The notes under the pieces were generated by a model that searched no databases, was not told where the DNA came from, and saw only the letters and a list, made by a program, of their open reading frames with translations. Shown here in pieces: positions 18,891 through 25,896 of a stretch of 64,000 nt of DNA (positions are counted from its first letter, which is position 1; every line of letters starts with the position of its first letter). Both the position numbers and the translations under genes were made by a program. This DNA is from Eledone cirrhosa (lineage: Eukaryota), in assembly GCA_964016885.1 (NCBI GenBank), contig OZ024744.1:31248001-31312000 (forward strand). Reading direction: 5' to 3'.

Positions 18891-19216
18891 GAAAGTGAGG
18901 TTTTTTTTACAAAATGAAAAATAACCGAGATATCCTACACAAGTGAAAGTATAAGGAAAAAAGATGAAATCGAAAATGCAACTGGAGTCTTTTAAAAAAA
19001 AAAAAATATTTATTTGGTTCCTTTACCGGTTTCGCAGTTCTTCTGCTTTTCAAAAGTAGGATTGAGATGGAGGGTCTGTGGTTTTTCTCACAAACCCTCC
19101 ATCTCAATCCTACTTTTGAAAGGCAGAAGAACTGCGAAACCGGTAAAGGAACCAAATAAATATATATTTAAAAAAAAAAGACTCCAGTTGCATTTTCGAT
19201 TACAACTTTTTTTCTT
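18891..19216 (-). mobile_element. Fold-back family B element in (TA)n with variant HHR in both arms
   Basis: Inverted arms ~18952-19075 and 19094-19216; HHR motifs at 19021-19056 (-) and 19113-19148 (+). Confidence 0.85.
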
Positions 19217-19597
19217 ATATATATATATATATATATATATATATATATATATATATATATATGTATATATATATATATATATATATATATATATATATAT
19301 ATATATATATAAATTTATAGTTCCTGTCTGTTTGTTTGTTTGTCCTATGGTTTTGGAGATAGACCCCCATAAACTTATATATTCTGAAACTACATTGCCC
19401 TGGGTACTTGGATAAATATATTTCATTTTAATCAAAGGGTTCCTCGCTGAAAATCTTTTCCCTTCGATTTATATGAAATTTAAACCATAGGTAAATGAAA
19501 AGATATGATGACTATTCACAAAATTTCAGCAAATTTCAATAATATTAAGACACCCCTAATGCGAGTTAAACCCCTTATAGTGAAAATGTTGGCCAAT

Positions 19598-19957
19598 AAA
19601 TGGAACAAGATGTCTTGTAACAAGATTGCGTGAGAACTTGATTGAAGCAACCATAATATTAGGGGCTTACAAAGGTCAAACTCTTCTCATTCCGAGCATT
19701 CCACTTATACCAAGTGGTAGCGAGTTGCCTTTTACATTTCAGAGGCTGCAGTTCCCAGTGAGGGCATGCTTTGCCATGAGCATCAATAAGAGTCAAGGTC
19801 AAACTTTCAAAACTATTAGTATATCTGACAAAACTCATGTTTCAGTCATGGCATGTTTTATGTGGCTGTTTCAAGGACTGGAACTCCAAAAAATCTCTAC
19901 ATTTTAGTCAATCAAAGTAAGACAAGAACTGTTGTTTACCCTGAAGTTCTTCATTAG
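19598..19957 (+). pseudogene. Helitron RepHel PIF1-helicase C-terminal fragment
   Basis: NGTRCLVTRLRENLIEATI..IPLIPS..LPFTFQRLQFPVRACFAMSINKSQGQT../..FSHGMFYVAVSR..VVYPEVL*. Confidence 0.85.
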
Positions 19958-20479
19958 GACAAAGTATGAAATATATTTTCATGTATTTATTATGTTAAAA
20001 AATAAATAATTAAACTTTGAATTTCTAATTTGAAAATAATGCTTTACACAAAAACGAAATGATCAAGTTTTGAATTGATATTTTGAAAAAAATTATTTAC
20101 AAGAACCAAAATAAGAATAGGATTTAATAATGTAATTTTGATTTGATATATTACAAAAAATAATATTTTCCAATTTTTCATGCATTACATTTTACATTGA
20201 GTAATATTGAAATGTAGAGTTTTTCTTCATAAATGATATCACTGTTTAAAAATAAATCATCATTTTCTTACAAAAAGAAAAAAATTTTATATAACAACAA
20301 TGCTCAGAAACAGTAAGGAAAACAACAACAACAACAACAACAACAACAACAACAACAACAACAACAAGGAGAACAATATCAAAGTTCTATAAAATTACAC
20401 CTTTTTTGTTGATTTTCTGAGAAAACGTTTTAAAGAGCTACAACAACGATACTATATTGAACTATTTATGATAATTAGG

Positions 20480-20882
20480 GAGCTGACGTTTTGGGACTTG
20501 TTCTCCGCCTCCAGCCGTGTCACTTTAGCCACAAAACTACGTTTAGCTGCTTGTCATACAAAGAAGAGGAAGATAGTTAAACACTGGGGCCTGACTGACC
20601 AATTCTCCTCTGTAGCTGTCACAGTGGAGACCTCTGATGTCCTTGGTCCCCACATCATTACAGAAGAGAAGACCTCTGGTATCCTTGGTACCCATATTAC
20701 TACAGAAGAGAAGACCTCTGGTGTCCTTGGTCCCCACATTACCACAGAGGAGAGGACCTCTGATGTCCTTGGTCCCCATATTACCACAGAGGAGAGGAAG
20801 ATAGTTAACTACCAGGGCCTGGCTGACCACTTCCTCTTTGTACCTGTCTCGGTTAAGACCTCTGATGTTCTCGGTCCCCGCA
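20480..20882 (+). mobile_element. CRE-like non-LTR restriction-like endonuclease remnant with a 42-bp tandem expansion
   Basis: ERKIVNYQGLADHFLFVPVSVKTSDVLGP resembles the K..KY..L....F.PVA.ET.G..GP motif; the unit gacctctgatgtccttggtccccatattaccacagaggagag occurs x4. Confidence 0.5.
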
Positions 20883-20998
20883 TCCTGCTTCAGGAAGGGG
20901 TCCTGTCAGGTGTGATGGCTGTTGTAGCGGGTTTCTCTGGCCATTCTCCGCGATAATACCTTTACCATTTTGTCCTTGGGACGCAATTCTGTCTAGTC

Positions 20999-21154
20999 GT
21001 TCTTCTTCTTCTTCTTCTTCTTCTTCTTCTTCTTCTTCTTCTTCTTCTTATTATTATTATTATTATTATTATTATTATTATTATTATTATTATTATTATT
21101 ATTATTATTATTATTATTATTATTATTATTATTATTATTATTATTATTATTATT
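20999..21154. repeat. (TTC)n-(TTA)n compound microsatellite
   Basis: Direct reading. Confidence 0.95.
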
Positions 21155-21164
21155 CCTGAGAGGG

Positions 21165-21532
21165 TCATGGGACAGAGCCCTTAAACATCCTTCCAGCAGC
21201 TCCTGTCAGAAGCGACTGTCTCTATCTAATCCGGCTGGATACCCAAGCGTGACCAGCCAAGCTCATGGATGCTATCCAACCATCTTGCTCAGAATCTACC
21301 TCTGGGTCTCCTGCCAGTTGGTTTTGCCTGTAAAATATGTCCAGCAATTCTTTACTGAGACATTCTAACCACATGTCCACAGTATCAGAGCTGTGATCTC
21401 TCAATTCAGAGAAGTAGCGGCTCTACCTGGAGTAACTCTCTGATCTCAGAGCTATGCACTTTATCGAGTAACGTTACTCCAAAGACCTTTCGGAGGAACC
21501 ACATTTCGGCCGCTTGTATTCGCAACCGTATT
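21165..21532 (-). mobile_element. RTE-type LINE 3' fragment
   Basis: Similar to 14585-14752 and 13525-13760. Confidence 0.7.
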
Positions 21533-24208: not shown

Positions 24209-24470
24209 GAAAAGTGTCAGGACCCCGACGGCAGAGCTCCGGTCGTTTCGACAGTTAGATCCGAACCGATCTGGCTAGATCCCCAAACCTGACCAGTTAA
24301 GTTCATGGACGTTATCCAACCATCTTGCTCGTGGTCTACTCCGGAGTCTTCTGTCGGAGCTCAGTCGTCGAGGTCCTGACTCTTTTCATATTATCCACTC
24401 TACTACCCTAAGTATTGAGTACTCTGGTGCGTTATGGACTAGCTGGTATCTTACCATTCACTCTTTGTTG
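24209..24470 (+). mobile_element. Diverged family A element with foreign sequence in the loop
   Basis: Arms ggaccccgacggcagagctcc / ggagctcagtcgtcgaggtcc, family A tail, and LINE-like tatccaaccatcttgctc at ~24313. Confidence 0.7.
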
Positions 24471-24660
24471 TGTATACATACACACACACACACATGTATG
24501 TACATATATATATATACACACACATATACATACACATATATATATATGTATATATATGTATATATATGTATATATATATATATATATATATATATATATA
24601 TATATATATATATATATATATATATATATATATATATATATATATATATATATATATATA

Positions 24661-24966
24661 AAGAAAAAAAGATGAAATCGAAAATGCAACTGGAGTCTTA
24701 TTTTTGTTAAATATATATATTTATTTGGTTCCTTTACCGGTTTCGCAGTTCTTCTGCTTTTCAAGAAAAACCACAGACCCTCCATCTCAACTCTTCTTTT
24801 GAAAAGCAGAAGAACTGCGAAACCGGTAAAGGAACGAAATAAATATATATATTTTTTTAATATAAGACTCCAATTGCATTTTCGATTTCATCTTTTTTTC
24901 TTTATACTTTCACTCGTGTAGGACACCTCGGTTATTTTCCTTTTTGTAAAAAAAACCTCACTTTCT
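24661..24966 (+). mobile_element. Fold-back family B element
   Basis: 24661-24764 is inverted with 24799-24903; HHR at 24794-24833. Confidence 0.85.
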
Positions 24967-25027
24967 AATATATATATATATATATACATAATATATAAGA
25001 TCAAAAGATGGTTAAAGGAGTTCCATG

Positions 25028-25098
25028 TATTTTATTATGCGCATTTCAAAAACAAACATCATCATGCAATAATATTTGTGTTTTCATCAGATAAAACA
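25028..25098 (-). ncRNA. Type I hammerhead ribozyme (inverted copy)
   Basis: Reverse complement of 25225-25295. Confidence 0.85.
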
Positions 25099-25224
25099 GG
25101 AGGACATGATATGAAGGCTAAAAAACACTTGTGGATAGTGCAGTTTTAAATCAACATATCATGATATGTTGATTTAAAACTGCACTATCCACAAGTGTTT
25201 TTTAGCCTTCATATCATGTCCTCC

Positions 25225-25295
25225 TGTTTTATCTGATGAAAACACAAATATTATTGCATGATGATGTTTGTTTTTGAAATGCGCATAATAAAATA
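25225..25295 (+). ncRNA. Type I hammerhead ribozyme
   Basis: tgttttat CTGATGA aaacacaaatattatt-gcat-gatgatgtttgttttt GAAA tgcgca TA ataaaata; palindromic stem III (atgcgcat). Confidence 0.88.
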
Positions 25296-25543
25296 CATGG
25301 AACTCCTTTAACCATCCTTTGATCTTATATATTATGTATACTCCAGTCCTACAAACTGTAGAGTGCTTCTTATCCGATATCTGCATTGCTTTATTGTACT
25401 ACAATAAAACTCACCTCCTACATTATATATGTACATATATATATATACATATATATATATATATATATATATATATATATATATATATATATATATATAT
25501 ATATATATATATATATATATATATATATATATATATATATATT

Positions 25544-25896
25544 AGAAAGTGAGGGTTTTTTTACAAAATGAAAAATAACCGAGGTGTCCTACACGAGTGG
25601 AAGTATAAAGAAAAAGGGATGAAATCGAAAATGCAACTGAAGTCTTATTTTTTTTAAAATATATATATTTATTTGGTTCCTTTACCGGTTTCGCAGTTCT
25701 TCTGCTTTTCAAAAGGTGAGTTGAGATGGAGGGTCTGTGGTTTTTCTCAGATGTGAGAAAAACCACAGACCCTCCATCTCAACTCACCTTTTGAAAAGCA
25801 GAAGAACTGCGAAACCGGTAAAGGAACCAAATAAATATATATATTTAAAAAAAAATAAGACTTCAGTTGCATTTTCGATTTCATCCCTTTTTCTTT
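25544..25896 (-). mobile_element. Fold-back family B element
   Basis: Arms ~25605-25749 and 25754-25896; HHR at 25679-25716 (-) and 25787-25824 (+). Confidence 0.85.
25787..25824 (+). ncRNA. Minimal hammerhead with U3:A8 core
   Basis: cctt TTGAAAA gcag-aagaa-ctgc GAAA ccgg TA aagg, then AATAAA. Confidence 0.7.

Follow-up and report, generated by a model that had tools for sequence, protein, structure and literature searches.

The 64,000-nt stretch of Eledone cirrhosa DNA that was analysed (hereafter the window) contains three insertions, all located inside (TA)n tracts and each built of a pair of inverted arms, so that six copies of a short hammerhead motif lie within 18889-25897 (Table 1). 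In every insertion one end is short and the other bears a tail of ~63 nt, and the arms are 88-99% identical to the end of a full-length retroelement found elsewhere in the genome. In insertion 1 the tailed long end forms the left arm and the short end the right arm, with ~88-90% identity to the full-length copy, and insertion 3, with 98-99% identity, is the youngest of the three. A sequence-only reading had reported the motif from three insertions, with TTGAAAG in one arm, and both observations were recovered when the six copies were located. Matches to an 11-mer of the motif with one mismatch numbered 11 in the window, compared with 2.16 expected. The stretch was also present in an independent DNA run, and the core was without variants at a frequency of 5% or above.

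Table 1. Positions of the insertions, motifs and other features (window coordinates unless a locus is named; L125 is the G000 full-length copy).
Feature	Position	Strand	Remarks
Insertion 1	18889..19217		Head-to-head 3' ends (pseudo-LTR ends) of two Penelope-like elements, in (TA)n
Hammerhead motif	19020-19053	-	Insertion 1; minimal type I, core UUGAAAA (U3:A8), 3-bp stem I
Hammerhead motif	19116-19149	+	Insertion 1; A9G (UUGAAAG / TTGAAAG)
Short inverted-repeat element	24219-24378		
Insertion 2	24659..24967		Head-to-head ends of Penelope-like elements; left short, right tailed (tail ~24905-24967)
Motif copy	24731-24764	-	Insertion 2; core intact, 5' strand of stem I missing
Hammerhead motif	24799-24832	+	Insertion 2; minimal, U3:A8
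Second fold-back family	25002-25336		
Canonical CUGAUGA minimal hammerhead	25028-25098	-	Second fold-back family
Canonical CUGAUGA minimal hammerhead	25225-25295	+	Second fold-back family
Insertion 3	25543..25897		Tailed end left (tail ~25543-25605)
Hammerhead motif	25679-25712	-	Insertion 3; minimal, U3:A8, stem I 4 bp
Hammerhead motif	25791-25824	+	Insertion 3; minimal; core 25791-25797, U3 = 25791, A8 = 25796, A17 = 25820
Short inverted-repeat element	26765-26860		
50-bp satellite array	28686-64000		~707 copies, 90% match
Motif, full-length copy	L125:2568		Sense strand
ORF1	L125:2732-3958		409 aa
ORF2	L125:3871-6195		775 aa
ORF1/RT ORF overlap	L125:3871-3958		-1 frame
Motif, full-length copy	L125:7247		Sense strand
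Hammerhead motif linked to a Penelope-like element	L186:1969		A3:U8 core (AUGAGUA)
Hammerhead motif linked to a Penelope-like element	L191:117		G3:C8 core (GUGAACA)

The motif follows the type I order of stem I, 7-nt core, stem II, GAAA, stem III, UH and stem I. In the plus-strand copy of insertion 3, stem II (GCAG/CUGC) is followed by GAAA, the palindromic stem III ACCGGU and stem I (CCUU/AAGG), and the predicted cut falls after GUA. G5, A6, A9, G12, A13, A14, the A15.1-U16.1 pair and H17 are all present in five of the six window copies; the exception is the A9G copy, which is likely to be a dead private mutant. The Watson-Crick pair required at positions 3 and 8 takes the form of U3:A8, judged by complementarity and covariation and not by structure, and the short palindrome of stem III is capable of dimer formation. 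The layout first described, stem I included, was confirmed for five copies (stem I of 3-5 bp) and failed for the minus-strand arm of insertion 2, where 'ctt' is absent, stem I having lost its 5' strand at the inversion junction. The core UUGAAAA does not match the literal CUGANGA consensus, a departure that is covered by a published U3-A8 variant. At the gathering score Rfam gave no match in the window, and given that the canonical-core CUGAUGA family at ~25028-25295 was missed as well, the failure is not specific to U3:A8.

That canonical-core family is a second fold-back family with a long stem II and an 8-bp stem I, both of whose hammerheads are missed by Rfam; longer copies of it were found in L012, L013, L031 and L037, and the same genome holds at least three more canonical-core minimal hammerhead families (L018, L023/L031, L129, L257-L286). 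The window further contains two short inverted-repeat elements that start with GACCCCGACGGCAGAGCTC, adjoin (TA)n and are also present in L031 and L034, and a satellite array that extends past the window end.

The exact 34-mer motif had 10,850 matches in the 3.0-Gb genome, and its reversed control had 0. In longer copies the motif is preceded by a 3' UTR of ~1 kb and, further upstream, by a frame encoding an RT, a CX4CxxC linker and a GIY-YIG endonuclease. A search with the last 342 residues of this protein returned 118 places with 98-100% identity, nearly all of them free of stops and many with open frames of 775 aa. In the full-length copy L125, ORF2 lies in the -1 frame relative to ORF1 and the two sense-strand motifs are 4,679 nt apart, so that the layout reads pLTR (pseudo-LTR, with motif), ORF1, ORF2 with RT, Zn-linker and GIY-YIG, and again pLTR (with motif). 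The carrier of the motif is a tandem pLTR-ORF-pLTR Penelope-like element (PLE). It has the features of EN+ PLEs, namely an RT of the PLE type with a GIY-YIG endonuclease with CCHH C-terminal to it, and pseudo-LTRs in both tandem and inverted arrangement with a tail at one end. The CX4CxxC linker, the long spacer before the endonuclease and the (TA)n flanks are those of Neptune elements; linker and spacer were judged by eye against Fig. S2 of PMC8557442, where they agreed with the Neptune rows but not with the short Nematis ones. On these sequence features the element is likely to be of the Neptune type, a placement made beside an RT tree that has unnamed rows only. Two runs bearing the labels of other organisms contained low-depth contigs, which we did not accept as evidence for other hosts.

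With the Neptune-clade EN+ PLEs described by Craig et al. 2021 (PMC8557442) the element shares an RT with GxKF and DKG, the C-terminal GIY-YIG, a CX2-5CxxC linker, (TA)n targets, a 3' hammerhead, and tandem and inverted pLTRs with a tail on one end. One-sided tails have been described for PLEs (PMC8557442, PMC11167929); the tail here is ~63 nt, compared with the 30-40 nt given for the Neptune clade (PMC8557442). The window insertions are 5'-truncated head-to-head ends of this PLE. Given that their motif copies are oppositely oriented and that the read-through RNA of insertion 3 folded in computation as a single long hairpin (-249.9 kcal/mol), these fold-back copies are likely to be inactive by-products, and any function of the motif would belong to the tandem full-length copies.

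The proposal that the variant is family-wide was borne out. Besides the 10,850 exact copies, the C3:G8 version of the exact motif with the same stem II was found 0 times genome-wide, and U3 and A8 were present in 113/113 motif reads from ORF/UTR-selected loci (deduplication was imperfect). A genome search using a relative with 66% identity recovered only the same family. Allowing any stem II gave three C3:G8 matches, of which two were inversion-junction artefacts and one was an indel arm whose partner arm carries TTGAAAA. A wider C3:G8 pattern gave 105 matches, fewer than the 157 in the reversed control and mostly belonging to another family. U3:A8 is fixed throughout the lineage.

Conservation of U3 and A8 across genomic copies had been offered as a check. 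Position 3 was changed in 84 copies, none of which was also altered at position 8 (0/84), and position 8 was changed in 39 copies, as compared with 40 for the free position 7. Position 17 differed in 106 copies under a broader pattern, with A17 otherwise fixed and no escape subfamily apparent. Each of these variant classes makes up less than 1% of the family and is at background. Given that position 7 varies as rarely as position 8, copy-level conservation was rejected as evidence of selection; it shows only youth and is uninformative in a family this young.

An older set of copies comprised 1,826 matches, from which 30 copies were sampled; in the best segment their identity to the young end was 74-97%. 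TTGAAAA was present in 22/30 and C3:G8 in 0/30. After exclusion of seven copies (three with deletions, four at junctions), the core of the remaining 23 contained 3 substitutions in 161 bases, none common to three copies. In a column-level test of core conservation among subfamilies, the core (0/10 columns) and the flanks (8/34) showed a difference that is not significant alone (p = 0.17). The fourth pair of stem I is A.G in 19/23 of these copies, leaving a stem I of 3 bp, and in older subfamilies stem II has just 3 bp.

The good evidence for the pair lies outside this genome; fixation among copies is weak evidence. From collections of metagenomes and genomes we took 83 loci that encode related RTs and scanned them without constraint on positions 3 and 8; these relatives are at most ~50% identical, the closest protein relatives (59-74% identity) lying outside the set. 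The scan gave 27 distinct sense motifs, and positions 3 and 8 formed a Watson-Crick pair in 27/27 (22 C:G, 3 U:A, 1 A:U and 1 G:C), together with six antisense matches, two of them without 3:8 pairing, and two matches in 10 shuffles. A stricter descriptor gave 19/19. Random re-pairing yielded p = 6×10−7 for 27/27, a value that is overstated given that the rows share descent and the thresholds were set post hoc, after earlier scans; the set also includes two near duplicates and one weak call (L152).

A 26-row RT tree places the family with L142, L143, L144, L145, L149 and L221, all of which are C3:G8 and three of which share the CCGG stem III. The sister row is L152, a weak U3:A8 call that also has A17, and the remaining states other than C:G sit on separate branches. 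From this distribution the direction of change is not fixed, yet the swap is a double one. The sense-strand position in the pseudo-LTR, the C3:G8 relatives at the same place and the 27/27 paired motifs together support both the type I assignment and the compensated-pair reading, in which U3:A8 preserves the 3:8 pair, and U3:A8 likely replaces C3:G8 as the core pair. Given that all four Watson-Crick combinations were seen at 3:8, descriptors should require pairing and not letters. More than 10,000 motifs in this genome alone escape a descriptor limited to CUGANGA, and the prediction that such searches would overlook the variant has a precedent in print, where a first descriptor also missed U3-A8 motifs (PMC4209133).

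The U3:A8 core is real but not new, being another example of a published variant, PLEs and UUGAAAA included, and it leaves hammerhead chemistry unchanged. Perreault et al. 2011 (PMC3088659) reported that C3:G8 covaries to U3:A8 in several natural hammerheads, in a section that makes no tie to PLEs or to the combination of U3 with A17. Cervera and de la Pena 2014 (PMC4209133) described ~1,300 U3-A8 matches in Cercyon PLEs of Schistosoma mansoni that had been missed by a first CUGANGA descriptor, and in the supplementary row S. mansoni(4) the core starts with UUGAAAA. The Cercyon motif and the present one are both minimal type I hammerheads in a PLE pseudo-LTR, with a palindromic stem III and a U3-A8 core. 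Unlike in Cercyon, A9 here adjoins stem II with no extra nucleotide intervening, stem II has 4 bp, stem III carries the 4-nt insert CCGG, the family, with its more than 10,850 copies, is homogeneous, and the cleavage nucleotide is A17 whereas S. mansoni(4) has U17 (PMC4209133).

Two points had been overlooked when the motif was first read: the fold-back copies of the window are unable to show the active fold, and U3 can pair with A17. The monomer folded at -5.8 kcal/mol without stem III and at -0.4 kcal/mol once the A15.1-U16.1 pair was added; stem III cannot close in a monomer because the loop would have only 2 nt, and the monomer folded no better than shuffles (z about -0.7). Two copies joined through ACCGGU in the hammerhead register gave -21.1 kcal/mol. 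These energies are in keeping with the dimer model for PLE hammerheads and with the low rates published for them in vitro (PMC4209133, PMC6765202). In the lowest-energy computed dimer (-22.5 kcal/mol) U3 is paired with A17 and the core is not left open, the hammerhead register lying 1.4 kcal/mol above this trapped form. The U3-A17 pair is predicted to extend stem I, with a computed probability of 0.52 in the young copy, of 0.80 and 0.06 in two older copies, and of 0.00 in two U3:A8 relatives having U17 or C17.

A related trap has been engineered. Kalweit and Hammann 2013 (PMC3884650) proposed the C3-G17 pair as the reason why G17 impairs minimal hammerheads at least 300-fold; there, as here, position 3 can form a pair with the nucleotide at the cleavage site that stacks on stem I, although U3-A17 is natural, fixed, weaker and predicted. 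Given this resemblance, the family may be slow or protein-dependent. No mention of U3-A17 pairing was found in the passages on hammerheads that were consulted, a coverage that lacks Lunse 2017, Przybilski and Hammann 2007, and Nelson and Uhlenbeck 2008. A rather doubtful extension of the folding model is that fixed U3:A8 together with A17 might act as a built-in latch across the cleavage site that would keep the hammerhead inactive in naked RNA and open only on dimerization or through an element protein, so that cleavage would be timed to the transposition cycle; if true, the latch would be a natural equivalent of the C3-G17 trap that was engineered.

Taken together, we consider it probable that the motif on the sense strand of the terminal repeat of this young, high-copy PLE is a minimal type I hammerhead in which U3:A8 stands in for C3:G8 and which is predicted to cut itself after GUA. 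In a tandem transcript, stem III would be built by two motifs through the ACCGGU palindrome, U3:A8 would form the core pair, and the predicted cut would trim the element RNA, a step that is probably slow and dependent on a dimer or an element protein, while pairing of U3 with A17 on stem I would compete with the active fold. Earlier work cited by PMC3088659 found U3:A8 ribozymes to be active in vitro, and PLE pLTRs carry dimer-type hammerheads, the U3-A8 form occurring in Schistosoma (PMC4209133). Against this explanation stand U3-A17 in the best dimer, the z-score of the monomer, the weak stems and non-significant column test of the older copies, and the hammerhead of a Poseidon PLE, which cut only with protein and whose cleavage was dispensable for insertion in vitro (PMC11167929).

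Some of these same results would suit a motif that derives from a hammerhead but is effectively off through U3-A17 and weak stems, persisting as a protein binding or folding site or as a hitchhiker, with no part for cleavage in transposition. The high U3-A17 probabilities (0.52 and 0.80, against none in the U17 and C17 relatives), the large loss ascribed to the analogous C3-G17 in minimal hammerheads (PMC3884650), the lack of an escape subfamily among the 106 copies altered at position 17, and the success of Naiad PLEs without canonical hammerheads (PMC8557442) all point that way. U-A is, however, weaker than C-G, the dimers differ by just 1.4 kcal/mol, the pair has a probability of 0.06 in another older copy, the core of the 23 older copies shows no change common to three of them, and the weak call L152 likewise combines U3:A8 with A17; we consider this reading unlikely. 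Far less probable still is a chance resemblance of an A/T-rich transposon end to a hammerhead, with U3:A8 meaningless, for which the AT-rich genome, the unremarkable monomer z-scores, the missing Rfam match and the neutral level of copy-level conservation could be cited. Rfam missed the canonical-core family of the same window too, in the nearest relatives canonical CUGANGA hammerheads with the same stem III occupy the same place and strand, and the descriptor yields only two matches in 10 shuffles of the 83 loci, so that the scan largely refutes coincidence. Being young and having many unbroken frames, the family offers a convenient natural system in which to study the role of PLE hammerheads and any throttling by U3-A17.

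The overlap between ORF1 and the RT ORF contains an in-frame slippery heptamer, T TTT TTA, whose T-run had the standard length in 65/66 raw reads of own copies. The heptamer was also found in five of the eight relatives with a -1 overlap (L141, L142, L147, L149 and L152), and this conserved pattern makes a programmed -1 ribosomal frameshift likely in this PLE clade. A literature search on ribosomal frameshift in Neptune Penelope elements found nothing; the legend to Fig. 1 of PMC8557442 gives a frameshifted ORF1 for some PLE types, the clade being unstated in the text. Relatives of the animal-type PLE protein also occur under bacterial symbiont or MAG names (P0012, P0037, P0041, P0056; L221-L223), and these are likely to represent host DNA contamination in those assemblies.
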